Positions 6,013 through 44,310 of a stretch of DNA of 64,000 nt are shown in pieces; the first letter of the stretch is position 1; the number at the start of each line of letters is the position of its first letter. Position numbers and translations under genes: made by a program. The stretch is from an uncultured delta proteobacterium. GTDB taxonomy: Bacteria > Desulfobacterota > Binatia > UBA9968. The notes under the pieces were generated by a model, which had not been told where the DNA came from, made no database searches, and worked only from the letters and a program-made list of their open reading frames with translations. The stretch spans positions 288,001 to 352,000 of the forward strand of contig CAWFJP010000031.1 of NCBI GenBank assembly GCA_963816145.1, given 5' to 3'.

Positions 6013-6055
6013 CGTCTAATATTAGACATTAATCCATCACCAGTCCGTGTAAGCT
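6013..6055 (+). promoter_or_regulatory. CRP-like dyad CGTCT-AATATT-AGACA plus -10 TAAGCT (21-bp gap)
   Basis: Member of the 10-copy motif family; class II geometry; precedes the 6162 ORF. Confidence 0.7.
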
Positions 6056-6161
6056 CATCAGTTCCAGTTAAGCCAGTATCGGCCATCGGCGTTTACCTGA
6101 AATTCTTCAAGTAAGCCTGCTTTTGTATTTTCTTTTAACCGGTCCAACCGAGGAGGTTCCA

Positions 6162-6482
6162 ATGTTTAGCCGAAACGTGAGTTACAAGCTCAAGGCCAAA
6201 AGTGCGGCGGAGTTTACCCGCATTGTCGAAGGAGAAGTCATTCCCTTGCTGCGGCGGCAAAAAGGATTCGACGATGCAATCAGTTTCATCGCGCCGGAGC
6301 GCAATGAAGCGATCACGATCAGCCTGTGGGACAAAAAAGAAGACGCGGAGGCCCATATCGCGAAGACCTATCCGGAGATATTAAGGGCTCTTTCGAGCGT
6401 AGTCGAAGGCTCTCCTAAGGTGGAGTCCTTCGAGATCAGCAACTCGACCTCGCACCAGATCGCCGCCAGCCCGGTCAATTAG
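6162..6482 (+). CDS. ABM/dimeric alpha-beta barrel-like small protein
   Basis: GAGGAGG RBS; LRRQKGF...ISLWDKKEDAEA pattern typical of ABM-fold proteins. Confidence 0.7.
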   Translation: MFSRNVSYKLKAKSAAEFTRIVEGEVIPLLRRQKGFDDAISFIAPERNEAITISLWDKKEDAEAHIAKTYPEILRALSSVVEGSPKVESFEISNSTSHQIAASPVN

Positions 6483-6488
6483 ACTGTG

Positions 6489-6531
6489 ATGGCGGTTCGG
6501 CGATGGGGCGACTCCCTTGCCGGACCGCCAT
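6489..6531 (+). terminator. GC-rich hairpin after the 6162-6482 gene
   Basis: ATGGCGGTTCGGCGA pairs with TTGCCGGACCGCCAT; only a weak U-tract follows. Confidence 0.45.
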
Positions 6532-6645
6532 GACTTTCGGTGTGGCGCGCTGCTGATCGCGCGTTGCGCTGTCCTGCAGCTCTGTTCGCGCCGATGATGT
6601 CACGCTACCTGGACTTAGCACGCACCAAGAGGTACTGTCACGACG

Positions 6646-6681
6646 CATGGGGGGGGCGCGAGTGTCTCGCGCTCCCCCATG
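6646..6681. repeat. Inverted repeat upstream of CRP-like gene 1
   Basis: CATGGGGGGGGCGCGAG-TGT-CTCGCGCTCCCCCATG. Confidence 0.55.
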
Positions 6682-6750
6682 ACTGACTGACCAAGCCCTT
6701 GGTTAAATCGACTGTTACCTTAGCATCGTGGGCTTCGAAATGGAGACACG

Positions 6751-7434
6751 ATGGCGATTCAACAAACACCCCAATCAGACCTGTTCAAGCAACAACTGCG
6801 CGAATCCTTGCATCGCGAGACGGCAAATAGTCGTGCCATCAAGATTGCCCGGCACGCCAACGTTTACACCTGCGGCGATCGCGACGAGATGGTGTATTTC
6901 GTCGAGAGCGGCCAGGTCAAACTGCTCATGTTGTCTTCCGAGGGGAGGGAGTGCCTCCTGGCGATTCATAGCGCGGGCGATATCTTCGGCGAGCTTTGTC
7001 TTTCCGGTTTAGGCGCGCGTTTGGAAACCGCTACGGCGATGAAGGCGACGACGCTCAAACAGATTCCCTGCTCGCAGTTCTTCGTGCGTCTTAGCCGCGA
7101 CTTGCTGTTCGAGGGGTTTGTGCGCTACTTGGCGGTGCGGATCGCCGACCAGCAGCAGATCATCGCCAATCTTGTGACCGTGGATAGCGAGCAGCGGCTG
7201 GGCCAGACGTTGTTGCAGTTGGCTCGCACCATGGGCAAGAAAGATCCGCGCAGCATCCGAATCGAGCTCAAGATCACCCATGAAGAACTCTCCGAGATGG
7301 TCGGCACGACGCGGCCGCGCATTAGCCTGTTCATGCAACGATTTCACAATCTGGGTCTGATCGAGACCAACAAGGACCGCTTTTTCATCATCAAAGAAAA
7401 GAAACTCACCGACTACCTGGAGCAGATTGCCTAG
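6751..7434 (+). CDS. CRP/FNR-family transcriptional regulator (paralog 1)
   Basis: cNMP-binding barrel (ESGQVKL...GDIFGELCL), C-helix, HTH THEELSEMVGTTRPRIS. Confidence 0.93.
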   Translation: MAIQQTPQSDLFKQQLRESLHRETANSRAIKIARHANVYTCGDRDEMVYFVESGQVKLLMLSSEGRECLLAIHSAGDIFGELCLSGLGARLETATAMKATTLKQIPCSQFFVRLSRDLLFEGFVRYLAVRIADQQQIIANLVTVDSEQRLGQTLLQLARTMGKKDPRSIRIELKITHEELSEMVGTTRPRISLFMQRFHNLGLIETNKDRFFIIKEKKLTDYLEQIA

Positions 7435-7582
7435 AATTTTTCGGCGGTTTGACTCGACTTGCCACCGGGCGAATAGGCGCGGATCATGCATTCGCTCGCT
7501 TTGCATTGAGTTCGTTAAAGGAAAACTTTCAGGTTAGCCAGCTACTGCATGTAGCAAGGCCCGACGCGGGATGCTGCTAGCC

Positions 7583-7756
7583 CTATGACTGTGGATCTTT
7601 TTGTCGGGTTGCCGTCACTCCATGGACGATCGCTATGCCGACCAAACAGAGAATGGCCACGCCGATCCACTGCATCGGCACGTTGAGTATATTGGCTCCG
7701 ATCGCCAGGCCGGCGATCAGTATGATGTATCCGACAAGATAGATTCCAAATGACAT
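7583..7756 (-). CDS. 57-aa two-TM membrane microprotein (not in ORF track)
   Basis: Hand translation MSFGIYLVGYIILIAGLAIGANILNVPMQWIGVAILCLVGIAIVHGVTATRQKDPQS; AAGGAG RBS; own motif-bearing promoter. Confidence 0.8.
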   Translation of the reverse strand: MSFGIYLVGYIILIAGLAIGANILNVPMQWIGVAILCLVGIAIVHGVTATRQKDPQS

Positions 7757-11694: not shown

Positions 11695-11737
11695 ATTATG
11701 CCGGTTATGCGCGGGGATTACTGTCCAATAGTAGACC
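11695..11737 (-). promoter_or_regulatory. CRP-like dyad GGTCT-ACTATT-GGACA plus -10 CATAAT (21-bp gap)
   Basis: Motif family member oriented toward the mlaE-F-D-pqiC operon. Confidence 0.7.
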
Positions 11738-11809
11738 AGCGGGCCGGAAGCGATTGCGCCGAACACGGAATCGCGACCCCGGTCTGATGGCTAGAAACGA
11801 CGACACCGC

Positions 11810-12635: not shown

Positions 12636-12844
12636 TGGGCATAGATGAAGTTCAGCCCCGGTGTCGTGCTCCAATGGCCGAGCAGGCGTGGTTTGATGTG
12701 TGCCAGCTTGAGCGGTTTCTTCAACAGCAGATTGTCGTAGAGATAAATCTGTCCAACGGAAAGATAGTTCGCCGCGCGCCAATAGGCGTTTGTCTTACGC
12801 AGCGATTCTGCACTGAGTGTCCTAGAGTCGAGGTTTGTTTTCAT
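12635..12844 (-). pseudogene. xfp: N-terminal remnant of phosphoketolase
   Basis: [19 protein letters not shown]...[22 protein letters not shown], then an abrupt join to the ATPase sequence. Confidence 0.88.
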
Positions 12845-15393: not shown

Positions 15394-15455
15394 CCATATT
15401 TGTTATCTCCTCGTTTGCTGTTTGCTGATTTTATTTCTTACGTCATTTATCTAGA

Positions 15456-15579
15456 GCACTATCGATGCCGCTCTCGAACAGGCGCGAAAGCGCCGTTTGC
15501 CGTTAGATTACTGGCGCATGATAATGAACACGGAGAGAACGCTCGACCAAATCGTCGCGCTTTTCGACCAATTAGTAAG
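15456..15579 (-). promoter_or_regulatory. Tandem enhancer (15543-15579) plus sigma54 promoter CGGCAT-CGATA-GTGC (module A)
   Basis: CTTAC-TAATTG-GTCGA-AAAGC-GCGAC-GATTTG-GTCGA, 72-bp gap, GG-N10-GC. Confidence 0.75.
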
Positions 15580-15944: not shown

Positions 15945-15987
15945 AGGATACGCGTTGCCCACGGGATTTGCTGTGCAAAAGTAGACA
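15945..15987 (-). promoter_or_regulatory. CRP-like dyad TGTCT-ACTTTT-GCACA plus -10 gcgTATCCT (21-bp gap)
   Basis: Motif family member oriented toward the lmo0937-like gene. Confidence 0.7.
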
Positions 15988-16121
15988 ACGGAGCAAGTAA
16001 TGACGGCAGTATCGATTACTTGGATGAATGAGGCTTGCTAGCATCGAATCATCTCATCGCCGCGGAGGCAATTTTTCAAATTCCAGTTCTAGTCGATACC
16101 GAGCCAGTGCGGCAAGGGCGG

Positions 16122-16164
16122 TGTCTAATATTGGACGGTCTTCAGAGACTTTTTGGCGTATTCT
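16122..16164 (+). promoter_or_regulatory. CRP-like dyad TGTCT-AATATT-GGACG plus -10 gcgTATTCT (21-bp gap)
   Basis: Motif family member upstream of hsp20-lon. Confidence 0.78.
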
Positions 16165-21122: not shown

Positions 21123-21159
21123 CTGCGCCCGTGACCCGGCGCGCGAATATTATGAACAT

Positions 21160-21202
21160 CGTCCAGTATTAGACAGCAATCCCGCCCCAGGCGGCGCATG
21201 AT
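21160..21202 (+). promoter_or_regulatory. CRP-like dyad CGTCC-AGTATT-AGACA plus -10 gcgCATGAT (21-bp gap)
   Basis: Motif family member upstream of the 21235-dodecin pair. Confidence 0.75.
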
Positions 21203-22118: not shown

Positions 22119-22242
22119 CCGACCTTTTGGTCGAAGTCTCCGACGCTTTCGCCGTGCCTGCTCTCGGATTCACCGCCATACAGCTCGGAATGGTTGAGTA
22201 TTATCACATTCGTCTGGCGCCAAGGGGCGGCACAACAGTTGC
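22119..22242 (+). promoter_or_regulatory. Tandem enhancer (22119-22155) plus sigma54 promoter CGGCAC-AACAG-TTGC (module B)
   Basis: CCGAC-CTTTTG-GTCGA-AGTCT-CCGAC-GCTTTC-GCCGT, 72-bp gap. Confidence 0.8.
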
Positions 22243-22289
22243 GCTAGAGGAGATGTAGATAAAAATTTTCAGTGGAGGATAAAAAAGTT

Positions 22290-23180
22290 ATGAAGAGATT
22301 ACGATCAGTTCTATCGCCGATGGTTACGACAGCGGGGATCTTGGCCTTGTCGGGTGCGGTTTTAGCTCAATCACCCAGCGAGTCCCACCGTGCTGCGAGC
22401 GCGCGGGCGCATGAAATTATGTCCAGTGCGCCTTGTCCGTTGCCCAGAGTTACCAAGGAAAAGATCACCGAAGACGAGGGGCGGGATTTAGCCCAAGCCT
22501 TTGCCGACAAAAACATGAACGGCTTTAGAGTCGTGCGGCCGTTGGGTTACGGCGGCGGTTACACGACGATGTGTTACCAGACCGCCAACGGCGCTCCGAC
22601 ACGGCCGCTGGTGTTATACTCTGTGGAGTATTCCATGGATCTAAAAAACCCAGCAGGTGAAACGCGCAATCTGTGCGTCGATCAATACGGCACGGTGAGC
22701 GAGTTCTGCAGCGATTTCGGCTTCGCGGGCGCAACCGGCCCGGCTGGTCCGATCGGCCCCATGGGCGCACAAGGTCCGGCGGGACCAATGGGCCCTCAGG
22801 CGACGGCTGCTGCTGAGGTAAGGAAATGGTCCTCGTTCAACAACATTCTGTTCGATTTCGACATGTCGGTCATTCGGTCCGACGAGACGAGCAAGGTAAC
22901 CGATATCGCGGCCTACTTGAAGCAGAATCCGACCGCCCGCGTGGGCATCGACGGCCACACCGATCCGCGCGGCACCGACGCTTACAACCAGGGCCTGAGC
23001 GAACGCCGTGTCAACGCCATTAGTGAGGCGCTGGTGACAGCCGGCGTGGCGACTGGCAAGATCCACACAGGCGCTTTCGGTGAGTCACAGCTCAAATGCC
23101 ATGAATCCACCGAGGCTTGCTGGCAGAGCGACCGTCGAGTCGAAGTGTTGATCGGCAACGCCGACATCGCCAGCCGATAA
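22290..23180 (+). CDS. Secreted OmpA-C domain protein with collagen-like G-X-Y linker
   Basis: Signal peptide; GATGPAGPIGPMGAQGPAGPMGPQ; ILFDFD, GHTDPRGTDAYNQGLSERR, DRRVE. Confidence 0.88.
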   Translation: MKRLRSVLSPMVTTAGILALSGAVLAQSPSESHRAASARAHEIMSSAPCPLPRVTKEKITEDEGRDLAQAFADKNMNGFRVVRPLGYGGGYTTMCYQTANGAPTRPLVLYSVEYSMDLKNPAGETRNLCVDQYGTVSEFCSDFGFAGATGPAGPIGPMGAQGPAGPMGPQATAAAEVRKWSSFNNILFDFDMSVIRSDETSKVTDIAAYLKQNPTARVGIDGHTDPRGTDAYNQGLSERRVNAISEALVTAGVATGKIHTGAFGESQLKCHESTEACWQSDRRVEVLIGNADIASR

Positions 23181-23302: not shown

Positions 23303-25045
23303 ATGCTTTCCTCCATGCGCAAGTCGTTTTTACCGAGCCACTTTGTCGCTTTGGGAATGCTGGTCCTGATTTTGGTATCCCTCTACGGATTCATAGAGGC
23401 TCGCAGACTCAAGCGAGAATTCTTGCGCCAGACCGAAGACAAAGGCGTGGCATTGGCCAGCGCGATGGCGGCTGGCGTTACAAACGCTATCGTCGGCAAT
23501 GTTCCCTTGGAGAAGCAGATCGAGCAGCGCCTTTTGGCGAACGCCCGGTTAATCGACCAACTGCTCCTCACTCGCCGTGTCGATCAAGCGCTGCTCATGG
23601 AGGTCAGCACGCAAAATCGCTTACAAAAAATCGATCTCCTCGATCCGCAGGGCCAACCCAAAGAGATTTCCTCTCTGCAGGCGATGATCGCAAGGAAAGA
23701 CCAAGGCGTTGACCTCCCGCAGGAACGCGAACCGACGTTGATCTATATGTGGGGAAAGCGTTTGCGTTCGCAAGAGGCGAAACCTGCGAACCCGGTTATC
23801 AATCTACCGACCCGAATCACGGCAAATGAGTTTTGGAAAGGCAGCGCAATTGGCGTCGCTGTCGTCGCCCGCAGTTTTCCCGGGATCATCGCGGTCCACG
23901 CCAACGCTGACTATATTTTGAACTTCGACAAAGAAATCGGTTTGCAAAATCGAATCCAGGAGTTGGGCAGCGCAGCGGAGGCTGAGTTTGTCGCGCTTCT
24001 CGATAGCAACTTCAATGTCGTTGCTCATACGGACATGAGCCGGATCGGACAACGGGAAAAAGACACCCTTGTTTTGTCCGCCAACGGCGATCGTCAACTT
24101 TTGAGCCAAATCGTCGAGAGCAGCGGAGGGAAAGAGTACTTGGAAGTGGTCAAACCCGTTGCGTTGTATCAATCCAATATGGGATTCCTGAAAGTTGGGA
24201 TTTCCCTGGGGTCGATGGAGATCGCTTGGCGCAACAGCTTGCGTGCGATTCTCATTCTGGGAATAGCGATCTTCGCCGTGGGCATGCTCGGAATGGCGGC
24301 GATTTTCCATAATCAGAACTCCCATCTGCGACATGTCAAAGGTTTGGAAATCGAAGTGTTACATCGAGAACGCCTTTCAGCAATGGGCGATGTGGCTGCG
24401 GCGGTCGCTCATGAGGTGAGAAATCCGCTCAATGCCATCTCCATGGGTCTGCAGCGTCTGAAAATGGAATTTAAGCCCAGCGATGACCAGGAGGACTACT
24501 CTCGTCTCACCGGTTTAATGCTGGGTGAAGTGCACCGTCTGAACTCGATCGTCGAGCAGTTCCTCGCGCTGGCGCACCCTGTTGAGATCAAACCTGAGCC
24601 CTTGCCGTTGCCGGAAGTCCTGAAAGAGCTAGCAGCGTTACAAGACGGCACCGCGAGAGATTCGAATGTGCGCATCCAAGTAATAGCGGCGCCCAATACG
24701 CCGCCGCTCATGGCCGATCCCGCTCATCTAACCCAAGTGCTGATGAACCTCATGCTCAACGGTTTGCAAGCGATGCCCGACGGTGGAACCTTGACACTGG
24801 AGGCGAAAGCTTTGAACGGCAAATGTCGCATCGCGGTGGCGGATACCGGAGCCGGGATCGCGCCGGAAAACCAGCGGCGAATTTTTGAACCTTACTTCAC
24901 GACTAAGGTAAAGGGCACCGGGCTGGGTCTGGCGATCTCGCGCAGGATTATCGAAGCCCACGGCGGAACGCTCACTGTTACCAGTAAGGTGGGTCAAGGA
25001 TCCCGCTTCGAGATTTCATTGCCGCTCAACCGTGCGGAGGTGTAA
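23303..25045 (+). CDS. Membrane sensor histidine kinase (ZraS/AtoS-like)
   Basis: Two TMs flanking a large periplasmic domain; AHEVRNPL H-box, N, G1 DTGAGI, F FEPYFTTK and G2 GTGLGL boxes. Confidence 0.92.
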   Translation: MLSSMRKSFLPSHFVALGMLVLILVSLYGFIEARRLKREFLRQTEDKGVALASAMAAGVTNAIVGNVPLEKQIEQRLLANARLIDQLLLTRRVDQALLMEVSTQNRLQKIDLLDPQGQPKEISSLQAMIARKDQGVDLPQEREPTLIYMWGKRLRSQEAKPANPVINLPTRITANEFWKGSAIGVAVVARSFPGIIAVHANADYILNFDKEIGLQNRIQELGSAAEAEFVALLDSNFNVVAHTDMSRIGQREKDTLVLSANGDRQLLSQIVESSGGKEYLEVVKPVALYQSNMGFLKVGISLGSMEIAWRNSLRAILILGIAIFAVGMLGMAAIFHNQNSHLRHVKGLEIEVLHRERLSAMGDVAAAVAHEVRNPLNAISMGLQRLKMEFKPSDDQEDYSRLTGLMLGEVHRLNSIVEQFLALAHPVEIKPEPLPLPEVLKELAALQDGTARDSNVRIQVIAAPNTPPLMADPAHLTQVLMNLMLNGLQAMPDGGTLTLEAKALNGKCRIAVADTGAGIAPENQRRIFEPYFTTKVKGTGLGLAISRRIIEAHGGTLTVTSKVGQGSRFEISLPLNRAEV

Positions 25046-26470
25046 ATGCCAAATCGTTTTCACATTCTGGTCGTCGATGACGAACCGGCGCAGCGCGAGG
25101 TGATCTCGGGCTTTCTGCGCAAGCAAGGCTTTGAAGTGGTAACGGCCGATAGCGGGGAGCGCGCCTTGGAACTCTTTCGTCAGGACGCCTTTGATCTGAT
25201 TCTGACCGATCAAAAGATGGCTGGCATGACTGGCTTGGATCTGATGCAAGCGGTGCACACCATTAATTCGGACACGCCGGTCATCTTAATTACCGCTTTC
25301 GGCACCATCGCAGCCGCCGTGGCTGCCCTTAAAAAAGGCGCCATCGATTATCTGACCAAACCGTTAAATTTGGAAGAACTGTTGCACCGCATTCGACTAG
25401 TCAGCGACCGCTACCGAATTCTCACCGAGAACCGCGAGTTGCGGGAAGCGTTAGGGGAGCGACATCGTATCGAGGGCATCATCGGCGAGAGCGGGCCGAT
25501 GCTTGAAGTTCTTTCTATGGTGCGCCGGGTCGCGCCGAGTGAAGCGACGGTATTGATCCGGGGTGAGAGTGGCACGGGGAAAGAGCTGATTGCCCAGGCC
25601 ATTCACCATGGTAGCCCAAGAGCGCGCGGCCCCCTGATCAAGGTTAACTGCGCGGCGCTGCCTGAAGCGCTACTCGAATCGGAATTGTTCGGCCACGAGA
25701 AAGGTGCATTTACCGGGGCGACAGCGTCGCGCCAAGGACGTTTTGAGCTGGCCAACGGCGGGACGATCTTTCTCGATGAAATCGGCGACCTGCCGTTGCA
25801 TTTGCAGGCGAAGCTCCTGCGCGTGCTGCAAGAGAGGGAATACGAGAAGGTTGGCTCCAGCCGTCCAGTCAAGGTCAACGTCCGAATCCTCGCCGCCAGC
25901 CATCGGCCGCTGGAAGCGCTCATCAAAGCGGGACAATGGCGCGAGGATCTTTACTACCGGCTCAACGTTGTGACGATTCTTCTTCCGCCACTGCGCGAGC
26001 GGCGCTCCGATCTATCGCTGCTGATCGACCACTTCGTGCGCCACTTTGCCGAGAAGAACGGCAAGAAGATCGCCGGTCTGACGGACGCAGGTCGAGATAT
26101 TCTTTTGCGCTATGACTATCCGGGAAATGTCCGGGAGCTGGAAAATATTATTGAGCGCGCCGTAGTTCTCACCAGGGACGATGTGATTGGCCGCGGCGAT
26201 CTGCCGATCACGGTTCAAGAACTTGAAGCCATAGACGACGACGACGAACCCAACCTTGCCATCGCAGTTGAACGGGTGGAGCGCCGGATGATCCGGGAAG
26301 CGCTGGCGCGCTTCGAAGGGGTCCAAACCCGCGCCGCAGAGCGGCTTGGAATCAGTGAACGGGCGTTGCGCTATAAACTGATCAAATACGGCTTTCGTGA
26401 AGAAGCCTCAGATGTCGATGCCGATCCGCAAGCTAAATCTCCGCAAGAAAGTTCTGACCCGCAGGATTAA
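25046..26470 (+). CDS. NtrC/ZraR-family sigma54 enhancer-binding response regulator
   Basis: Receiver domain, GESGTGKE, ESELFGHEKGAFTGA, FLDEIG, Fis-type HTH QTRAAERLGISERALRYKL. Confidence 0.95.
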   Translation: MPNRFHILVVDDEPAQREVISGFLRKQGFEVVTADSGERALELFRQDAFDLILTDQKMAGMTGLDLMQAVHTINSDTPVILITAFGTIAAAVAALKKGAIDYLTKPLNLEELLHRIRLVSDRYRILTENRELREALGERHRIEGIIGESGPMLEVLSMVRRVAPSEATVLIRGESGTGKELIAQAIHHGSPRARGPLIKVNCAALPEALLESELFGHEKGAFTGATASRQGRFELANGGTIFLDEIGDLPLHLQAKLLRVLQEREYEKVGSSRPVKVNVRILAASHRPLEALIKAGQWREDLYYRLNVVTILLPPLRERRSDLSLLIDHFVRHFAEKNGKKIAGLTDAGRDILLRYDYPGNVRELENIIERAVVLTRDDVIGRGDLPITVQELEAIDDDDEPNLAIAVERVERRMIREALARFEGVQTRAAERLGISERALRYKLIKYGFREEASDVDADPQAKSPQESSDPQD

Positions 26471-26641
26471 CGGATTTCTTCTGAGGTCGGCACGAAGGCT
26501 TTAACAATCGCGAATTCCACCTCAACGGTCACCCCACACGCCTCTAGGAGCAGGCTCGTCACGTTCACGACTGGATTCTCGGTGGCACGTACGAGAGTAA
26601 CGTACTTCGGTTAGCAATCCAGCCATCTTTCTTGTCGAATT

Positions 26642-26657
26642 CGTCCAGTATTAGACA
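26642..26657 (+). promoter_or_regulatory. CRP-like dyad CGTCC-AGTATT-AGACA
   Basis: Identical 16-mer to the 21160 site; -10 element less clear here. Confidence 0.68.
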
Positions 26658-26749
26658 GCGATCCCTGCCGATCCCCGATTAAGTGTATAAACGAAAAAGG
26701 CAGGCTCCGACCCAATCATCACGATTGATAAGGCTTGTTCGGAGGAGAG

Positions 26750-27154: not shown

Positions 27155-27264
27155 CATTGCCGTCGAATCGCGGACGTAGCTTCAAGGGAATCTGACCGCT
27201 GGTTAAATCGTTATTGACGAGCGTCAGGACCGCGTGGAATCCATCGGCAATTTTTTTTTAAGCT

Positions 27265-27307
27265 CGTTCAATACTAGACAGAAACCGTTTGCTACTCAGC
27301 GTACACG
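27265..27307 (+). promoter_or_regulatory. CRP-like dyad CGTTC-AATACT-AGACA plus gcgTACACG (21-bp gap)
   Basis: Motif family member upstream of receiver paralog 2. Confidence 0.65.
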
Positions 27308-30474: not shown

Positions 30475-30596
30475 CTGACTATTTAGTCGAAAGTCTCGAC
30501 GCTTTCGCCGAGCGTTCTTTGATTGGTTTATCTTGACGGTTAAAAAATCTTTCCGAACATCTAGCTTTTTCCTCTGGTCTCTCGGCGGTTTATTGC
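30475..30596 (+). promoter_or_regulatory. Tandem enhancer (30475-30511) plus degenerate sigma54 promoter CGGCGG-TTTA-TTGC (module C)
   Basis: CTGAC-TATTTA-GTCGA-AAGTC-TCGAC-GCTTTC-GCCGA; 71-bp gap; GG-N9-GC is one base short. Confidence 0.62.
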
Positions 30597-30983: not shown

Positions 30984-31107
30984 TCGACGATTTGGTCGAA
31001 GTGTTCGACGTCGCCGACGAGCATATCGTTTCGGCCCGTTTATCATGCAAATATTGCCTTGCAATCTCCAGCATCTTCCCCGCGTCAAGCTCTGGCACGT
31101 GTTCTGC
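30984..31107 (+). promoter_or_regulatory. Tandem enhancer (30984-31020) plus sigma54 promoter TGGCAC-GTGTT-CTGC (module D)
   Basis: TCGAC-GATTTG-GTCGA-AGTGT-TCGAC-GTCGCC-GACGA, 72-bp gap. Confidence 0.8.
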
Positions 31108-31365: not shown

Positions 31366-32207
31366 GAAAAAAACGAGAGCGCGTGCCTTCAATGTTTTAA
31401 CCATTGCTATTGTAATTTCGGCGCAACGAGGAATCGGTCACGCAAAGATAAAAGACAACATAATGATCCCTCGGCTATATCGAACGGTGAAATGAGAGTC
31501 GCGAGGTCGTGATCATGAAAATCAATTATTTCAAAATAGCAAACCGTAGTATTGAGGTTCTCGAACAGTCGAACAAGATTAGCTATTGGCAACTCATCGC
31601 TCTTCAGAGCCGAGCTAATGGTTGTTTCTATCAGTTTGATAAACTCCCCCAGATAAGATGGAAGTGGCCGACCGGCACGTGGTTTCAAGAACGGCTGGCC
31701 AAAAATCCCGGGATGCCGTCCTTCCAGCACAGTGACCGAATAGTTACATAGCGCCGAGCAGCGACCATCGTGAAGTGCCGAGCATACGGAATCCTGGAGC
31801 CGGGACTGCGGCATTCATCGACTCGTCGACCGGCGTAGCGGGCAATCGGAAAATATTTTCGCAATTGTCCGCTTTTAGACGGGAATGCCTCTCGGGCGAG
31901 GCTATTCTCTATTCGAGAGAAACGTTACAGCACCGCCCCGAGAACTCTCGGGCGAAGGCCAAAGCCATTTACTTTACTCGTAGTCACCAAAAAAGGAGGA
32001 CGCCACTTCGAAAAGAATAGGAGTTTACCTGACGTTGAAAGCGACCGAGACAACCATCGTACAGCTCTCAAAAAGCAGAAAATTGGGATGTCGCGTCAGT
32101 GGTGGTTATGCGGGACTCTATTTCAAAGTGGCGGGTAATCCGGAGGTACATTCGGCAGTAGTAACCCGATCCGTGATTGAGGATCCGAACCATAGGGGGA
32201 GACAGAT

Positions 32208-33981: not shown

Positions 33982-34105
33982 CCGACCATTTGGTCGACAG
34001 TTTCGACGCTAATGGCTAGCGGTTTCTTGATTTTCCTCTGTCAGCCTTACGAAGTGATCGAAAATAAAGACTTTTCCCCGTTGGAAGGCCTGGCACCGAT
34101 CGTGC
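33982..34105 (+). promoter_or_regulatory. Tandem enhancer (33982-34018) plus sigma54 promoter TGGCAC-CGATC-GTGC (module E)
   Basis: CCGAC-CATTTG-GTCGA-CAGTT-TCGAC-GCTAAT-GGCTA, 72-bp gap. Confidence 0.8.
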
Positions 34106-34473: not shown

Positions 34474-34478
34474 ATACC

Positions 34479-34520
34479 TGTCCAGTACCGGACGGTACTC
34501 TCTAATGAGTAAGCTAAAGT
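34479..34520 (+). promoter_or_regulatory. CRP-like dyad TGTCC-AGTACC-GGACG plus -10 TAAAGT (20-bp gap)
   Basis: Motif family member upstream of the long CsbD gene. Confidence 0.65.
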
Positions 34521-36241: not shown

Positions 36242-36365
36242 TCGACCTTTTGGTCGAGAGTCTCGACGCTTTTAACGAGCCATCTGTTAAATGCAACCAG
36301 CCCGCCTCAATAAGCTCTCGGAAACATGGTCTTTCCCTTGCCGTAATGTTCGGCACAGATAGTGC
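36242..36365 (+). promoter_or_regulatory. Tandem enhancer (36242-36278) plus sigma54 promoter CGGCAC-AGATA-GTGC (module F)
   Basis: TCGAC-CTTTTG-GTCGA-GAGTC-TCGAC-GCTTTT-AACGA, 72-bp gap. Confidence 0.82.
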
Positions 36366-36414
36366 TCCAGATAATTGGCGTTAGAAAACTAAATCCAAAA
36401 CTAGGAGATACACT

Positions 36415-36561: not shown

Positions 36562-36657
36562 TCCGATCAAAGAAATGAAATGCACGGAGTCTTTAACTCG
36601 GGCCAGCTGGAGCAGTCATTTCGTGAATACAGGCCTAACCATATTTCTTTGCAAACT

Positions 36658-36700
36658 CGTCCAAAATTAGACAGCCAATCCTGACTTGTCAGCGTAGAGA
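36658..36700 (+). promoter_or_regulatory. CRP-like dyad CGTCC-AAAATT-AGACA plus gcgTAGAGA (21-bp gap)
   Basis: Motif family member upstream of the 36727 lipoprotein-M48 cluster. Confidence 0.68.
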
Positions 36701-37812: not shown

Positions 37813-37913
37813 AGGGCGCGTCTTTAGTGACTGCACAACTTCTGAATGAGTAAGATGAAGGAAGAACAGGTTGGAAATAATTACGTTTCAAAAACAAGCC
37901 ATTGAGGTGATTT

Positions 37914-38225: not shown

Positions 38226-38269
38226 ACGTGGCTATGAAACGCGAGCGCATTCGATCGGAGGAGAAATCT

Positions 38270-38572
38270 ATGACAAGCAATAGCGAATCCAAATCTACCC
38301 ACTTACTTATCGGCCTGGCAGTGGGAGCGATCGGCGGACTCGTCGCCGCGATCCTGGCCCATAGAGAGACCCGCGAGGCGTTGCGTGAACGCAGCGAAAA
38401 AAGCTTGGACTACCTCAATCAGCAAGCGGGCAAGCTGCGCGAGACCGCCGATGTTATCGTGCAACAGGGGAAAAAGCTCATCGCTTGCAGCGGCTCCGGC
38501 TCGGTCGATCACTCTACGGAGGCCAGTAAGCAGGCCTATCAGGAAGGCAAGCGAGAAAACTTAGGCGGCTAA
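38270..38572 (+). CDS. YtxH-like protein
   Basis: LLIGLAVGAIGGLVAAILA...ETREALRE; GGAGGAG RBS. Confidence 0.75.
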   Translation: MTSNSESKSTHLLIGLAVGAIGGLVAAILAHRETREALRERSEKSLDYLNQQAGKLRETADVIVQQGKKLIACSGSGSVDHSTEASKQAYQEGKRENLGG

Positions 38573-38614
38573 AGTATCGCCAGCCAGTTTTATAGAAGGA
38601 TAAGGACCTAAAAA

Positions 38615-38788
38615 ATGCTTTGGCTTATTTTTGCACTGCTTTTAATGATGGGCGTCGTCAGCTTTTTCACTTCGTACACGATGCTTGGCGGAGGGGTTCA
38701 GATTGTACTGATTGGCGCGCTGGGGGCGCTTGGGGTCAAGCGCATTGGTGCAGTATCGAGCCGCATTCGGCGCTATCAGGTGGATTAG
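38615..38788 (+). CDS. lmo0937-like membrane microprotein (57 aa, not in ORF track)
   Basis: MLWLIFALLLMMGVVSFFTSYTMLGGGVQIVLIGALG...; AAGGA RBS. Confidence 0.62.
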   Translation: MLWLIFALLLMMGVVSFFTSYTMLGGGVQIVLIGALGALGVKRIGAVSSRIRRYQVD

Positions 38789-38846
38789 CCATTTCGTCTC
38801 AAAGACGAAGGAATAAATACGATGCGTCTTAAATCCGATAACGCTT

Positions 38847-39053
38847 GTGGGAATCGCTCTGATCGTGCTGGGCATCGTCGCGTTCGCCTACAAGGGGATC
38901 ACCTACACAAGCCGCGAGAAGGTGATCGATATTGGCCCCATCCATGCCACCGCGGATACCCAGAAAACCATCCCGTTGTCGCCTCTTTTGGGCGGATTGG
39001 CGCTGGTCGGTGGCATTGTGTTGGTGGTGGTCGGAGCGAAGAAGTCGTCGTAA
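38847..39053 (+). CDS. DUF3185-like small membrane protein (paralog 2 of 3)
   Basis: GIALIVLGIVAFAYKGITYTSREKVIDIGPI...TIPLSPLLGG...KKSS; the RBS-linked ATG at 38822 is one base out of frame. Confidence 0.75.
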   Translation: MGIALIVLGIVAFAYKGITYTSREKVIDIGPIHATADTQKTIPLSPLLGGLALVGGIVLVVVGAKKSS

Positions 39054-39213
39054 CGGCAAGGCAGCGCCGCACCGAGGAAGTAACTGCGCGGCGAAAGCGA
39101 CCGAGGGGCGAGCTGCACTACCTTGAACGGGAAGCAGGTCGACGGGGCGAGTTGGCATTGTAGGAGTCCTGTCGCGGCGATTGGGCTAGGAATACAGATG
39201 ATCTGGAGAAATC

Positions 39214-40434
39214 ATGAACCACGGTGCCATCGCTGGAACGCATCGTCGAATCGCCATGCTCGGCAATCACTTGCCGCGCCAGTGCGGTATCGCTACCTTT
39301 ACGACCGACCTCAGCGGCGCGATCGCCGCGGAGGTCTCTAACGCCGATTGTATGGTGGTTGCGATGAACGACGCCGGTAAACAGTACGCGTATCCCCCGC
39401 GGGTTCGTGTAGAGGTGGCCGAGGGCGACATCGGGTCGTATAACCGGGCAGCCGATTATTTGAACGCTAACAAGATCGACGTCGTGTCCGTGCAGCACGA
39501 GTATGGCATTTTCGGCGGCAAGGCCGGTAGCTACTTACTCACGTTTCTGCGCAAGTTGCGCATGCCGATCGTGACCACCCTTCACACCGTCCTCGGCAAG
39601 CCGGATTCCATGCAGCGTCGAGCCATGAACGAGATCACCCGACTCTCGAAGCGACTCGTTGTCATGAGCGCCCATGGCGCCGTCCTGCTTCATAATGTTC
39701 ACGGCGTGCCTGAGCACAAAATCGATACCATCCCGCACGGGATTCCGAGCGTGCCTTACGGATCAAGCACTAAGAAAGAACTCGGGTTCAAAGGTAAGTC
39801 GGTGATTTTTACCTTCGGACTGCTATCGCCGGATAAAGGCATCGAGCATGTGATCGATGCCCTGCCGGCGATTCTTGTGCGGTATCCCAACACGATTTAC
39901 GTCGTCCTCGGCGCTACCCATCCACATGTCAAAGAGCGCTATGGGGAAAGCTACCGCGAAAGCCTAGAGCTTCGGGCACAAGAACTCGGGGTGGCATCGA
40001 GCGTGATCTTTCACAACCGTTTCGTGAGCCGCGGTGAGCTCGTCAAGTTTCTCGCGGCCGCCGACATCTATGTCACGCCGTACCTCAAACCGGAACAGAG
40101 CACGTCCGGGACATTGGCCTATGCGGTAGGCTCGGGCAAGGCGGTCATTTCCACGCCTTATATTTATGCCCGGGAACTCCTCGCCGATGGGCGCGGGATA
40201 CTGGTACCGTGGCGAGATTCGCAGACCATCACCCGCGCGGTGGTGGATCTCTTGGGCGACGATGTAAAACGAGCCGCCCTCTGCGCCCGTGCCGCCGCTC
40301 ACGGCCGCAGCATGGTCTGGCCCGCGGTGGCGCGTCGCTACCTGCAGAGCTTCGACCGGGCATGCAGTCGAGAACAATCGATGCCTCGGGTTGGCCTGGA
40401 ATTAGACGATCGAGATCGCCGGGTCTTAACTTAA
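39214..40434 (+). CDS. Glycosyltransferase family 4, possibly C-terminally truncated
   Basis: GNHLPRQCGIATFT, QHEYGIFGG, TFGLLSPDKGIE, SGTLAYA.GSGKAVISTPY. Confidence 0.88.
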   Translation: MNHGAIAGTHRRIAMLGNHLPRQCGIATFTTDLSGAIAAEVSNADCMVVAMNDAGKQYAYPPRVRVEVAEGDIGSYNRAADYLNANKIDVVSVQHEYGIFGGKAGSYLLTFLRKLRMPIVTTLHTVLGKPDSMQRRAMNEITRLSKRLVVMSAHGAVLLHNVHGVPEHKIDTIPHGIPSVPYGSSTKKELGFKGKSVIFTFGLLSPDKGIEHVIDALPAILVRYPNTIYVVLGATHPHVKERYGESYRESLELRAQELGVASSVIFHNRFVSRGELVKFLAAADIYVTPYLKPEQSTSGTLAYAVGSGKAVISTPYIYARELLADGRGILVPWRDSQTITRAVVDLLGDDVKRAALCARAAAHGRSMVWPAVARRYLQSFDRACSREQSMPRVGLELDDRDRRVLT

Positions 40435-40475
40435 GAAACTGGCGAGACGCAAAAACTCAATTGGAGGTTTACTCA

Positions 40476-41129
40476 ATGAACAGTCTCTCTGTATATCAAA
40501 CCGCACACATGAAATATCCGTATACCCTGCCTACGATCGAGTATGCGTATGACGCACTCGAGCCGTACATTGACGAGCCAACGATGCATTTGCACCATGA
40601 CAAGCATCATCAGGCTTATATCGATCACGCCAATGAAGCGGTCGGCAAATATCCTGAGCTGCAGAAAACCGATCTAGTGACCCTATTGGCTAACCTTAGC
40701 GATTTGCCTGCCGATATCAGGACGCCGCTGCAAAGCAATGGCGGCGGCCACCTCAACCATGCGTTATTCTGGGAATACATGACGCCACGGGGTGGCGGCG
40801 AGCCTCAGGGCAAGCTACTCCAGGCGATTATAAAGACATTTGGCGGATTCGCTCATTTTAAAGAAGAATTTGATGCCGCTGCTAGAAATCGCTTGGGCAG
40901 CGGATGGGCTTGGCTTACCGTGACGCCTACGGGGGACTTGGAGACTAGTTCAACGCCAAACCAAGATACTCCGTTATCAAACGGTCAACTGCCGATTTTA
41001 GCTCTCGATGTCTGGGAACACGCGTATTATCTCAAGTATCACAACCGGCGGCCCGAATACATTACGAACTGGTGGCACGTGGTGAACTGGAAAAAGGTCC
41101 AGGAACAGTTCGACAAAATTACCGGTTAG
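40476..41129 (+). CDS. sodA: Superoxide dismutase, Mn-type signature
   Basis: HHDKHH, NGGGHLNH, GSGWAWL, PNQD, DVWEHAYY; GGAGG RBS. Confidence 0.92.
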   Translation: MNSLSVYQTAHMKYPYTLPTIEYAYDALEPYIDEPTMHLHHDKHHQAYIDHANEAVGKYPELQKTDLVTLLANLSDLPADIRTPLQSNGGGHLNHALFWEYMTPRGGGEPQGKLLQAIIKTFGGFAHFKEEFDAAARNRLGSGWAWLTVTPTGDLETSSTPNQDTPLSNGQLPILALDVWEHAYYLKYHNRRPEYITNWWHVVNWKKVQEQFDKITG

Positions 41130-41600: not shown

Positions 41601-42647
41601 ATGAAAAGTAATATCGTAAATCGGATGGTGATGGCACTTGTCATCAGCACTCTGGCGATGCCGGGGATCGGCCTTGCGGCCGAAGGGCAGCAAAACGTGC
41701 AGGAAGAGCAAAAACGCGCAAAGGATGAAAAGCAGCAACAGCGAAAGGAAAATCAGCAGCAGGATCAGGTTCAAAGAAAAGCTGAACAAGATCAGAAGCA
41801 ACAGCAACAACGCGCTCAGCAACAGGAAAAGCAGCAAGCGCAAAAGCAGCAAGCGCAAAAGCAGCAGCAAGTCCAGCAGCAGCGCGAGCGCGCGCAGCAA
41901 CAATCAGAACAAGACCAGAAAGAAATACGCGCGTGGCAGGAGCAGCAGCGCGAGCGGATTGAGCGCCAGTCGGAACAAATCGAGCAGCAGCGCGCGCAGC
42001 AACAGAAGCAATACCAAATTCAGGAACAGAGACAACAACAGCGTCTGTCCCAGCAGCAGCAACAACAGCGGATCAAAGAGCAGCAACAAAGTGTCGCGCA
42101 GTACCGCCAACATCTGGAACAGGAGGAGCGTCTCGCACGAGAGCATGCAGCGCAACTACAGCAACAAAGGCGCATGGCCCAGTATCGCTTTCAAGAAGAG
42201 TATCTAGAGCGCCTACGGCAGCAGAATAACTACCTGCGGGACCATCGGTTCGACTACGATAATGACCCGTATTTCTACACCCCGCCGATCTATCGTTACA
42301 ATCGTGGCGGCAAGTACTATCAAATCAACGAATATGGTGCGAAGTGGTTACGCCAGGCGGTCAGATATGGTTATGAAGAAGGTTTCCGCGCCGGCAAGGC
42401 AGACCGCGAAGACCGTTGGCGTGGCGGCAGTTACAAAGACTCATATGCTTATAGGGACGCAAACTATGGTTATAACGGCTATTACGTAAACCGGAGCGAT
42501 TACAACTACTACTTCCGTGAGGGTTTCCGACGCGGTTATGAGGATGGTTACAATAGCCGCTATCAATATGGCCGCTTTGATAACGGAAACTATTCGATCT
42601 TGGATAACATTTTGTCACAAATCCTCGGTTTCCAGAATCTTCGCTAA
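41601..42647 (+). CDS. Secreted Gln-rich coiled-coil protein with Tyr/Gly/Arg/Asn-rich C-terminus
   Basis: AGGAGGAG RBS, signal peptide (GLA-AE), long Q/E/R/K tract, repeated GY..GF..G motifs. Confidence 0.82.
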   Translation: MKSNIVNRMVMALVISTLAMPGIGLAAEGQQNVQEEQKRAKDEKQQQRKENQQQDQVQRKAEQDQKQQQQRAQQQEKQQAQKQQAQKQQQVQQQRERAQQQSEQDQKEIRAWQEQQRERIERQSEQIEQQRAQQQKQYQIQEQRQQQRLSQQQQQQRIKEQQQSVAQYRQHLEQEERLAREHAAQLQQQRRMAQYRFQEEYLERLRQQNNYLRDHRFDYDNDPYFYTPPIYRYNRGGKYYQINEYGAKWLRQAVRYGYEEGFRAGKADREDRWRGGSYKDSYAYRDANYGYNGYYVNRSDYNYYFREGFRRGYEDGYNSRYQYGRFDNGNYSILDNILSQILGFQNLR

Positions 42648-42658
42648 CCAATGGTCAT

Positions 42659-42692
42659 CTATGCCTCGGGGTTGCGCAACCCCGAGGCATAG
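42659..42692. repeat. Perfect 34-bp palindrome CTATGCCTCGGGGTTGCGCAACCCCGAGGCATAG (terminator-like)
   Basis: Self-complementary along its whole length; 11 bp after the stop of the Gln-rich gene; no U-tract. Confidence 0.7.
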
Positions 42693-42709
42693 CTCGCCAA
42701 CCCAGAGCG

Positions 42710-43023
42710 GCGCGCATTTTGGACTGCTGTCAATGAACGCGATGGAATCGCCAGCGACCTGTGCTGCTTTCGATACTCGGCGATGGTTATGGATGGCGTC
42801 TGGGCAACCGTGGGAAGCACGAACCTTTATTACCGTTCCCTCGCCATCAATGAAGAAACTCAATCTTGCCGTCAACGACGCAGGTGTCGCTGCGCAACTC
42901 GAGAAAACTTTTCAGGAAGATCTGCAGCATGCTAAAAAGTTGACTTACGAAGCTTGGGAGTCGTGTCCCTTGAACGGTAAGATCCCGGAATTGTTTTCCA
43001 TCCCGATCAAAGAGCAGTTGTAG
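42710..43023 (+). pseudogene. C-terminal remnant of cardiolipin synthase (PLD family)
   Basis: MVMDGVWATVGSTNLYYRSLAINEE, then a frameshift near 42857 into LNLAVND...FQEDL...KEQL; HKD motif degenerate. Confidence 0.75.
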
Positions 43024-43236
43024 GCAGCGCCGCCTTTATCGTACGGCATTCTTCTCGGTAGCGCTGCTTTTGCTCAACTCAGGCTTGCGCAGGATCGTTG
43101 GTTACAGCGCATCCAGCACCGGCTTCGGACGTCGGCTCGACCGCGACCGCCGGCGTTTTCCGACTCGCTGCTGCAACCGGCCTGGCGCAACATGTGGACT
43201 GCGCCTGGACTCATGCCTCACATAACTCGCTGTGAC

Positions 43237-43361
43237 TCGACCTTCTGGTCGATCGTTTCGACTCTTTCACCGACCTCGACCTCATTCCGCTTCTGGCCCT
43301 ATCGATAATCCCTAACGAAATCGAGTTCCTCCAGCTTTCCGAAGCGTGGCACGTAAGTTGC
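43237..43361 (+). promoter_or_regulatory. Tandem enhancer (43237-43273) plus consensus sigma54 promoter TGGCAC-GTAAG-TTGC (module G)
   Basis: TCGAC-CTTCTG-GTCGA-TCGTT-TCGAC-TCTTTC-ACCGA, 73-bp gap. Confidence 0.85.
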
Positions 43362-43407
43362 CCTATATCGTTATTGAGAAAAGCGAATGGAAAGAAGGTA
43401 ACTGACT

Positions 43408-43557
43408 ATGAGCCTGATTCTGTTGATCGTATTAGTTGTGTTGTTGGTGGGTGGTCTGCCTAACTGGGGTTATCACTCGTTTGGTTTTGCGCCGTCGGGC
43501 CTAGCCGGCGTGGTGCTGCTGGTGCTGATTGTGATGCTCTTGACGGGCCGGCTCTAA
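43408..43557 (+). CDS. DUF3309-family membrane microprotein (49 aa, not in ORF track)
   Basis: MSLILLIVLVVLLVGGLPNWGYHSFGFAPSGLAGVVLLVLIVMLLTGRL. Confidence 0.88.
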   Translation: MSLILLIVLVVLLVGGLPNWGYHSFGFAPSGLAGVVLLVLIVMLLTGRL

Positions 43558-43629
43558 ACGCCTTGCTACCAAGTGCTCAAGAGCAGCCGAGATTGGGCTC
43601 AGAGCCGGAATGATTGAGAAAAGCGACCG

Positions 43630-44310
43630 ATGATTCAGCAGACCCCGGAAGCGGAACGATTCAAAGAACAAATGCGCGAGTCGCTGCAGCACGAGACCAT
43701 GAACTCTCGCGCGGTGACGATCCCGCGGCACTCAAATATTTACACGTGCGGCGACCAGGACGAGATGGTTTATTTTATTGAGAGCGGCCAGGTCAAACTA
43801 CTCATGCTCTCGCCCGAAGGCAAAGAGTGTCTCTTGGCCATCCACAGCAGAGGCGATATTTTTGGTGAGTTATGTTTGTCCGGGTTAGGCGAGCGCCACG
43901 AAACTGCGGTGGCAATGAAAGAAACGAAAATAAAGCAAATCGCCTGCGATCAATTTTTTGCGCGTTTAAACCGCGACTCGCTGTCAGAGGGGTTCGTGCG
44001 CTACCTTGCCGTGCGTATAGCCGACCAGCAGCAGGTCATTGCCAACCTTGTGACCGTGGACAGCGAGCAGCGGCTGGGCCAGACGTTGTTGCAGTTGGCG
44101 CGCACCATGGGCAAGAAGGATCCGCGCAGCATCCGCATCGAGCTCAAGATTTCCCATGAAGAATTGTCTGAAATGGTCGGCACGACGCGGCCGAGGATCA
44201 GTTTGTTTATGCAGAGATTTCGCAATCTTGGGCTGATCGAAACGAATGCAGACCATTTTCTCGTCATCAAGGAACACAAACTCACCGATTACTTGGCGCA
44301 GATCGCCTAG
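43630..44310 (+). CDS. CRP/FNR-family transcriptional regulator (paralog 2)
   Basis: Same architecture as the 6751 gene, about 82% identical by hand count, identical HTH core. Confidence 0.93.
   Translation: MIQQTPEAERFKEQMRESLQHETMNSRAVTIPRHSNIYTCGDQDEMVYFIESGQVKLLMLSPEGKECLLAIHSRGDIFGELCLSGLGERHETAVAMKETKIKQIACDQFFARLNRDSLSEGFVRYLAVRIADQQQVIANLVTVDSEQRLGQTLLQLARTMGKKDPRSIRIELKISHEELSEMVGTTRPRISLFMQRFRNLGLIETNADHFLVIKEHKLTDYLAQIA

Follow-up and report, generated by a model that had tools for sequence, protein, structure and literature searches.

The stretch of DNA analysed here (the window, 64,000 nt) is C31:288001-352000 of an uncultured delta proteobacterium of the class Binatia, whose draft genome (G000) consists of 31 contigs with a total of 7.82 Mb and ~55% G+C. 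Gene calling used a codon-usage model that had been trained on long open reading frames (ORFs) of the same genome, and 50 window genes were annotated with Pfam. Between ~6.0 and 44.9 kb of the window the genes are mostly small and stress-related, and they make up a ~40-kb cluster of small stress-protection genes, hereinafter designated the island. Specifically, the island encodes an ABM-like protein, an Mla-like ABC system, VIT1, a cupin, a glycine-zipper lipoprotein, DUF5670, Hsp20-Lon, a LapA-domain protein, dodecin, an OmpA-family protein, two CsbD proteins, a low-affinity iron permease, entericidin, an M48 peptidase fragment, BON, YtxH, DUF308, two GT4 glycosyltransferases, an O-methyltransferase, an Fe/Mn superoxide dismutase (SOD) and DUF3309, while several further proteins match neither Pfam nor NCBIfam. 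The recognisable regulators are a histidine kinase (HK), an NtrC-type bacterial enhancer-binding protein (bEBP), two single-domain receivers (REC1 and REC2) and two CRP/FNR paralogues (crp1 and crp2). Pfam recognised in the island no DNA-binding domain besides those of the bEBP and the CRP proteins, and no alternative σ70-family master factor. Two families of regulatory motif, a σ54 enhancer-promoter module and a CRP-type dyad, are dispersed among these genes, and together with the regulators they suggest a two-tier stress regulon.

The first motif was identified by a repeat search followed by ungapped alignment, which gave seven copies of a 42-nt family in the window, six direct and one inverted. 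The enhancer common to the seven copies reads cGACnnTTTGGTCGA-N5-tCGACGcTTT..CGAG and contains two 14-bp palindromes, CGACS-N4-SGTCG, whose starts are 21 bp apart. A promoter element, GGCAC-N5-xTGC, lies 106–108 nt downstream of the enhancer start, and a ribosome-binding site and start codon follow 40–60 nt further on (modules A–G; Table 1). The element has the canonical −24/−12 spacing GG-N10-GC in six of the seven modules (TGGCAC or CGGCAC-N5-xTGC), and N9 in module C. As is characteristic of NtrC-type σ54 promoters, a dyad-symmetric upstream activating sequence stands ~107 nt before the −24 element. The same arrangement is found in relatives, where 50 of 55 distinct modules have the promoter element 106–111 nt from the enhancer start. 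The spacer between enhancer and promoter is not conserved, indicating that the modules are not copies of a recently spread repeat.

The enhancer is confined to the island. When both strands of the 7.82-Mb genome were scanned with a 37-nt enhancer position weight matrix (PWM), the seven copies scored 42–54 bits and the next best site scored 23. All seven modules lie within 28 kb, around the only bEBP gene of the island, and none lies elsewhere in the genome. With matrices built by leaving one copy out, five of the seven left-out enhancers outscore every site outside the island. The σ54 consensus by itself was uninformative, with 20 matches to TGGC-N8-TGC against 12.3 expected, and 169 against 180 expected in a 3-mismatch search; the modules stand out only once the enhancer is included in the search. 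A called 60-aa ORF (22076–22258) overlaps module B, and its "conservation" in relatives probably reflects regulatory DNA and not a gene.

Module B precedes the operon that encodes the two-component pair (23315–26470). The HK has two membrane helices around a ~285-aa extracytoplasmic part with a weak Cache-like match. The bEBP has the GAFTGA motif at residue 220 within its AAA+ domain (PF00158, 1.5e-72) and a receiver domain at residues 7–117, contrary to an earlier reading made from the letters alone (the sequence-only reading), which had spoken of a receiver-less bEBP. G000 contains 34 bEBP genes, of which a single one is in the island, and one rpoN (a Sigma54_DBD gene on contig C11). Orthologues of the bEBP at 79–90% identity are present in 8 of 24 congeneric genomes, more distant homologues (64–71%) exist elsewhere in the order, in other families, and G000 itself has one paralogue at 66% (contig C4). 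The synteny of the OmpA-like gene with the HK/bEBP genes is kept in seven genomes.

To the relatives' DNA that we fetched, comprising up to 80 kb around five bEBP orthologues and the whole short contigs of G022 (with an orthologue) and G006 (with a 67% form), we applied both PWMs and mapped the window proteins. Above 25 bits, the enhancer PWM finds 11 modules in G019, 5 each in G018 and G017, two apiece in G004 and G014 and a single one in G022, most of them followed by a recognisable GGCAC..TGC at the expected spacing. The gene order of the island is rearranged between species, while both motifs stay beside their orthologous genes. A module lies directly 5' of the OmpA-like/HK/bEBP operon in G000 and in all six of these congeners. 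In a whole-genome search, the exact enhancer pattern GACNNTTTRGTCGANNNNNNCGAC is present in seven of the eight congeners with a bEBP orthologue (at least 79% identity) and in one of the 14 congeners without (one of 13 when the unpublished G005 is not counted). That one exception is G003, in which a contig begins with part of the island, including crp1 and crp2, so its bEBP is probably unassembled. In two genomes of another family (G029 and G027), the sole exact match lies 2.5–4 kb from a 68–70% bEBP homologue, upstream of HK/bEBP genes, with a promoter TTGGCAC-N5-ATGCA at the usual distance; in a third genome, G025, no such match was found.

The enhancer thus travels with the bEBP operon and precedes it in nine genomes, seven within the genus and two from another family, which argues that it is almost certainly the site of the local bEBP and that the OmpA-like/HK/bEBP operon is probably autoregulated. 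Such a co-occurrence pattern is the usual comparative signature of an autoregulated regulator plus its site. A CGACCATTTGGTCG site near the paralogous bEBP on C4 was considered as a sign of shared specificity and dropped, as the genome contains 376 exact matches to the bare 14-bp palindrome.

The second motif is a 16-bp, two-fold symmetric dyad with the consensus yGTCYA-ATAT-TRGACr and a GTC-N8-GAC core; 141 distinct sites give yGTCcAaTATTrGACag. A symmetrised PWM finds 15 sites of at least 15 bits in the genome, of which ten are in the window, all ten intergenic (Table 1). A weak eleventh dyad (12.6 bits) is located at 7844, before a 57-aa gene. Genome-wide there are 18 exact matches to the pattern GTCYANNNNTRGAC, where base composition predicts ~28, and the island holds 6 of them, so the motif is concentrated in the island and not over-represented overall. 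Left-out dyads score 17–25.5 bits, a level that 0–4 positions outside the island reach. The sites lie 46–334 nt from start codons and fit the geometry of CRP/FNR-family sites (5-N6-5). For 10 of the 11 sites the dyad centre is 46–141 nt before the start codon, distances compatible with activation from about −41; the CRP proteins may activate or repress from these sites. By our own count, ~18 of some 30 island transcription units sit behind either motif.

Five dyads of at least 15 bits lie outside the window, one of them 6.6 kb upstream of its start and another 4–5 kb from a third CRP gene, crp3, on contig C1. The upstream one (C31:281342, 23.7 bits) precedes genes for a 116-aa membrane protein, a 761-aa glycosyltransferase-like protein and a possible glycoside phosphorylase, and the regulon, perhaps the island too, reaches past the window.

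Table 1. Regulatory modules, dyads and regulator genes of the island (window coordinates; modules on the plus strand start at the first coordinate, module A on the minus strand at 15577)
Feature	Position	Strand	Context
Dyad	6011..6030	.	before ABM-like gene 6162-6482, then crp1; conserved in G019, G003
crp1	6751..7434	+	PF00027 + PF13545; no σ54 module
Dyad	11720..11739	.	before Mla-like ABC operon (11530-7919, minus strand)
Module A	15455..15577	-	leads to glycine-zipper lipoprotein gene 15381-15046 (Pfam Gly-zipper)
Two dyads	15970..16139 (15970, 16120)	.	between divergent DUF5670 (minus) and Hsp20-Lon (plus)
Dyad	21158..21177	.	between divergent 70-aa gene and 194-aa/dodecin genes; conserved in G019, G014, G022
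Module B	22121..22243	+	promoter CGGCACAACAGTTGC; precedes OmpA-like/HK/bEBP operon
OmpA-family protein	22290..23180	+	signal peptide; Pfam OmpA; ATG at 22290, GGAGG upstream; first gene after module B
Sensor HK	23315..25045	+	HisKA + HATPase_c (Pfam); hydropathy, H-box
NtrC-type bEBP	25046..26470	+	receiver, AAA+ with GAFTGA, Fis-type helix-turn-helix (Pfam)
Dyad	26640..26659	.	before single-domain receiver REC1 (26750-27154)
Dyad	27263..27282	.	before single-domain receiver REC2 (27365-27835), then glycosyltransferase + O-methyltransferase genes
Module C	30477..30596	+	highest enhancer score; promoter GG-N9-GC; downstream gene uncertain
Module D	30986..31107	+	leads to 74-aa protein (31141-31365)
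Dyad (weaker)	31864..31883	.	334 nt before CsbD 32208-32420
Module E	33984..34105	+	leads to 26-aa hydrophobic peptide (34148-34228)
Dyad	34477..34496	.	before CsbD-domain protein 34564-35094
Module F	36244..36366	+	leads to entericidin-family lipoprotein 36415-36561 (Pfam Entericidin)
Dyad	36656..36675	.	before run h98, M48 peptidase, BON, YtxH, DUF308, GT4, Fe/Mn SOD (36766-41129)
Module G	43239..43361	+	promoter TGGCACGTAAGTTGC; leads to DUF3309, then crp2
DUF3309 small membrane protein	43408..43557	+	Pfam
crp2	43630..44310	+	CRP/FNR-family regulator, recognition helix TTRPRISLF

The three paralogues crp1, crp2 and crp3 have one recognition helix in common, HEELSEMVGTTRPRISLFMQRF. For crp2, the PF13545 match lies at C31:332068-332289, and the NCBIfam models for CRP, NtcA and Fnr are matched below their equivalog cut-offs. 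Relatives of crp2 are abundant, with 4682 database proteins at E ≤ 0.001, the best 120 of which are all at least 79% identical. The records of near-identical regulators are metagenome-assembled genomes labelled uncultured delta proteobacterium, Candidatus Binatia, Deltaproteobacteria, Thermodesulfobacteriota or Syntrophobacteraceae. Across contigs labelled Binatia, "Deltaproteobacteria", Thermodesulfobacteriota and Acidobacteriota, the clade is 78–95% identical.

The dyad accompanies this clade. We scanned named genomes with CRP homologues, 79 loci with a total of 0.99 Mb, and found 154 dyads above 18 bits, compared with 11 in the whole 7.8-Mb genome. At least one such dyad is present at 69 of the 79 loci, and ~40 of the scanned CRP genes have a dyad 34–72 nt (mostly 44–63) past the stop codon. 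Long Acidobacteriota-labelled contigs carry CRP genes 80–83% identical together with dyads, and with CsbD and BON nearby; an identity this high across phyla suggests either transfer or very strong constraint. While the co-occurrence of CRP clade and dyad is observed directly, the CRP paralogues are the proteins we infer to bind the dyad. In the Acidobacteriota-labelled contigs L074, L080, L082, L090, L098, L110 and L126, such CRP genes are present in several copies per genome, and L090 has three in tandem with dyads between them. In G000, crp3 (110343–111131) is part of a second, smaller stress cluster without a σ54 module (C1:109500–116100), which contains YtxH-like and DUF5670-like genes, crp3, DUF3309 directly after crp3, CsbD and a repeat lipoprotein gene, with dyads at 115459 and 115910 (450 nt apart, one of 14.0 bits) before and inside a 175-aa stress-protein-like gene.

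The CRP paralogues share their domain order and fold family with solved CRP-family proteins (Corynebacterium GlxR 4cyd, 4byy and 3r6s; M. tuberculosis Crp 3h3u and others; E. coli CRP; E-values 2e-23 to 7e-15), and the DNA site is likewise a two-fold symmetric 16-bp sequence. The nearest solved relative is GlxR (E 2e-23). The recognition helix differs, with RPRISL here in place of RETV(G/N)(R/K) (RETVNK in GlxR), and so does the half-site, GTCYA here and GTGA there. In E. coli CRP, a glutamate of the helix reads position 7 of the half-site. That position, where motif 2 (GTC) departs from TGTGA, coincides with a helix that lacks this glutamate. The phosphate-binding cassette, FGELCLSGLGERHETAV, has R-H-E-T-A where GlxR has R-T-S-S-A. 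Neither feature of E. coli CRP-type specificity, the R-E-x-x-x-R helix or the RS/RT phosphate motif, is found in the TTRPRISLF helix and the cassette. Because the phosphate-binding motif of the paralogues is R-H/L-E-T-A and not R-(S/T)-(A/S), binding of cAMP is doubtful.

Module G connects the two tiers. It leads to DUF3309 and crp2, which starts 72 nt after DUF3309, and no terminator-like or σ70-like site is predicted in 42600–44500. The order enhancer-DUF3309-crp2 recurs in G017, G018 and L053. In five other loci (L050, L051, L057, L061 and L072), the enhancer is followed by DUF3309, a 75-aa lipoprotein, a 131-aa lipoprotein and crp2, with the last two junctions 8–20 nt long, so that crp2 closes a packed operon. 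In L055, crp2 follows the enhancer at a distance of 204 nt without an intervening gene. The 72-nt gap of G000 (43558–43629) is what is left of the 3' end of the second gene in the lipoprotein pair (75 and 131 aa) kept in L050, L057, L061 and L072, and longer remnants lie between DUF3309 and crp2 in G017, G018 and L053. Every arrangement retains the final ~45 nt in front of crp2. The start codons of DUF3309 and crp2 each follow closely on an exact copy of a 14-nt repeat, ATTGAGAAAAGCGA (43373–43386 and 43613–43626); it has no further copy in the window with 2 mismatches allowed and is not conserved before crp2 in relatives, and it was set aside.

In a quick maximum-likelihood tree of 78 CRP proteins, where 16 rows with <1.3 kb of upstream DNA were left out of the enhancer count, the crp2 of G000 belongs to a clade (SH-aLRT 95, from the SH-like approximate likelihood-ratio test) in which nine of ten members have a same-strand enhancer at most 2.6 kb upstream. 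Four more enhancer-linked CRP genes are scattered elsewhere in the tree. The enhancer label changes five times on the tree, compared with a mean of 12.3 for shuffled labels (0 of 500 shuffles as low), which shows clustering and not independent events because kin share labels. Many island genes are covered by contigs assembled from four RNA libraries, which come from three soil or environmental studies, and one soil RNA-library contig (183 nt, 1 mismatch) bridges 43518–43700 across the gap between DUF3309 and crp2. These arrangements suggest that crp2 is probably co-transcribed with DUF3309 from module G.

The island can be read as a self-contained two-tier stress regulon, in which an HK would act through a bEBP and σ54 on a CRP protein and through it on stress genes, and we consider this reading likely, if well short of certain. 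An envelope, osmotic, desiccation or starvation signal, to judge from the gene content, would probably activate the kinase/bEBP pair. Specifically, the membrane HK with its large extracytoplasmic domain would phosphorylate the adjacent bEBP, which would bind the tandem-palindrome enhancer and drive six intact σ54 promoters, perhaps seven. At module B, the pair would amplify its own OmpA-like/HK/bEBP operon, a positive feedback; the other modules would drive genes for very small envelope proteins (the glycine-zipper lipoprotein, entericidin, DUF3309, the 26-aa peptide and the 74-aa protein), and module G would raise the level of crp2. In the second tier, crp1, crp2 and crp3 would bind the dyad before ~11 transcription units, among them Hsp20-Lon, the two CsbD genes, the BON/YtxH/DUF308/SOD run, the Mla-like ABC system, dodecin and the two receivers. 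REC1 and REC2 could act on tier 1 in return, as a phosphate drain or relay. Because crp1 and crp3 lack σ54 control, they probably provide basal or separately regulated input to the dyad regulon.

Most of what the sequence-only reading had proposed for these elements agrees with the present results. It placed seven σ54 modules and ten dyads, to which one weak dyad is now added, in front of a large share of the transcription units; it recognised the HK/bEBP pair and two CRP/FNR paralogues, as does Pfam; and it made crp2 the second gene after module G, 72 nt from DUF3309 with no obvious terminator. It also proposed to test whether the enhancer co-occurs with this bEBP clade and the dyad with the TRPRIS-type CRP clade, and both associations are found. 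Its chain from kinase to bEBP to CRP to stress genes has comparative support at each link, but crp1, crp3 and the Acidobacteriota-labelled contigs do without the σ54 tier.

Several observations weigh against a cascade of this form. The other two enhancers in the leave-one-out analysis score below the background (27.6 vs 28.8 and 21.1 vs 25.7), and module C is possibly inactive: it may be decayed, because its faulty −24/−12 spacing is one base short and no convincing gene lies behind it. The label "general stress" was drawn solely from gene content. Both crp1 and crp3 have the helix of crp2 without a σ54 module, and no enhancer modules are found on the long Acidobacteriota-labelled contigs that carry CRP genes and dyads, so the dyad regulon need not depend on a bEBP. 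The ~45 conserved nt upstream of crp2 could hold a promoter of its own, and the crp2-clade member L056 has no enhancer within 2.6 kb. A second RNA contig (X2) begins at 43598, inside the DUF3309-crp2 gap, and the RNA evidence as a whole is a weak hint, because assembled contigs are no proof of one continuous transcript and some DNA may be present in RNA libraries. The paralogues and contigs without modules, the conserved 45 nt and contig X2 would all fit two parallel regulons with separate signals, in which crp2 would be transcribed from a promoter of its own and a ligand or a modification, not the amount of crp2 transcript, would set CRP activity; the CRP proteins retain a cNMP-type (cyclic nucleotide monophosphate) sensory domain, with an altered phosphate-binding motif. 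We regard two parallel regulons as unlikely in view of the enhancer upstream of nine of the ten crp2-clade members, the position of crp2 at the end of a packed operon in five loci and directly behind a σ54 promoter in one, the lack of a predicted σ70-like promoter or terminator in 42600–44500, and the RNA contig that bridges the junction.

The pairing of regulators with motifs leaves room for two further explanations. Several island proteins match no Pfam or NCBIfam family and the CRP-dyad pairing is drawn from sequence, so the dyad might be bound by another, unrecognised island protein, with the CRP genes merely frequent neighbours of its targets. This seems very improbable to us: the dyad follows CRP homologues at 69 of 79 loci, in lineages with different labels and otherwise varying gene neighbours, its 16-bp two-fold symmetry is that of CRP-family sites and it fits the published site of the CRP-family protein MrpC, and apart from the bEBP the island has no other recognised DNA-binding domain. 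With 34 bEBP genes in G000, including the 66% identical paralogue on C4, a bEBP from among the other 33 might instead serve the enhancer, leaving the local pair to control something else. To this we assign hardly any probability, given an enhancer that in G000 is confined to the island, precedes the local bEBP operon in nine genomes, two of them of another family, and tracks the orthologue among congeners (seven of eight with it, one of 14 without). We thus retain the two-tier cascade as the preferred reading.

A 348-aa protein without a family match (41601–42647; 58–80% identity in congeners) has a long, glutamine-rich and internally repetitive middle part, into which the direct repeat families D3, D5 and D6 fall. 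Two genes appear to be fragments. An ORF at 11976–12674 (minus strand) matches just the C-terminal domain of cation-transporting P-type ATPases, and the 174-aa M48 peptidase piece (37288–37812, plus strand) is 90–92% conserved at the same length in congeners.

General stress responses are the textbook case of control by alternative σ70-family factors. The island presents, at the sequence level, a case in which CsbD, entericidin, BON, YtxH, Hsp20 and SOD genes are wired to σ54 and a CRP-family regulator. Its host organisms are uncultured soil lineages, and island genes are present in soil RNA libraries of three studies. Both motifs are sharp enough for regulon prediction in hundreds of metagenome-assembled genomes, and the CRP clade, with its thousands of database matches, is very abundant. 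The self-contained design, with seven enhancers in one 28-kb stretch, eases rebuilding in a laboratory host.

The RpoS, SigB and EcfG regulons are similar in content, with CsbD, entericidin, BON/OsmY-like, YtxH, Hsp20, SOD and small membrane proteins. They differ from the island in their dedicated alternative σ70-family factor, of which the island has none; in G000 the best match to the RpoS equivalog model TIGR02394 scores 293 bits, below the cut-off of 378.7, which is weak evidence because the model is proteobacterial. As an EcfG example, csbD and ecnAB are reported as direct general-stress genes in Sphingopyxis (PMC7083833). In the open-access literature searched, we found no description of a σ54/CRP-wired CsbD/entericidin stress regulon, or of such a system in Binatia.

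Parts of the proposed wiring have been described elsewhere. In Desulfovibrio vulgaris, the DVU3303-DVU3305 "three-component system for general stress responses" is likewise reported as a two-component bEBP that regulates its own operon and neighbouring membrane or stress genes (PMC3333781, PMC4641369). Its targets are induced by several stresses, and species that share the orthologue also conserve the binding site (PMC3333781). However, the partners named in those reports are a Lon-protease response regulator and UspA proteins, and their descriptions mention no CRP tier. In Borrelia burgdorferi, the Rrp2-RpoN-RpoS pathway is described as a bEBP and σ54 that switch on a second, global regulator of a large adaptive regulon (PMC2940757, PMC3037356), but there the second tier is a sigma factor and not a CRP-family protein, and the published account gives a single σ54 target, compared with six or seven predicted here.

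By wiring and site, the nearest described system is the Mrp module of Myxococcus, which matches the proposed architecture, has a nearly identical site and differs in targets and gene order; the comparison draws on published descriptions of wiring and sites. In M. xanthus, MrpB, a bEBP encoded beside the kinase MrpA, is reported to bind two upstream sites and drive the σ54 promoter of mrpC (PMC10701913). MrpC is described as a CRP/Fnr protein that binds hundreds of promoters of the starvation programme at TGTYN8RAC (PMC4320627; bioRxiv 10.1101/737593). In both systems the HK gene adjoins an NtrC-like bEBP gene, and in the island, too, a CRP-family gene stands behind a predicted σ54 promoter with tandem candidate bEBP sites. 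The 141-site consensus of motif 2 (yGTCYA-N4-TRGACr) fits the reported MrpC site, and the CRP proteins here also have ~30 residues before the barrel. A protein-cluster database search returned generic CRP/Fnr clusters alone and gave no lead to MrpC. In contrast to the developmental targets in Myxococcus, the candidate targets here are small stress and envelope proteins, crp2 is 17 kb from the bEBP gene and behind DUF3309, the bEBP is predicted to drive several other promoters directly, and three CRP paralogues share one helix. By PWM, 43200–43630 contains no dyad above 9 bits; none overlaps the module G enhancer, so the negative autoregulation of MrpC is not seen in G000. In G018, one dyad is located just upstream of the enhancer.

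The sequence-only reading did not recognise this architecture from described general-stress systems. The published M. xanthus pathway from MrpA/MrpB through the σ54 promoter PmrpC to MrpC (PMC10701913) is itself a kinase/bEBP/CRP-family cascade, so the proposed arrangement is less unprecedented than had been held, and it is well supported by comparative sequence analysis. The similarity to MrpB and MrpC also offers a testable idea on the origin of the developmental switch of Myxococcus. More speculatively, and as a possibility that we ourselves rather doubt, the CRP clade with its dyad might be the master regulator through which abundant but uncultured bacteria of soil control a general response to stress or desiccation, in place of RpoS, SigB or EcfG. 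In one lineage this regulator would have come under a σ54 two-component switch, and MrpB-MrpC would be a specialised descendant or a convergent twin of that older cascade.

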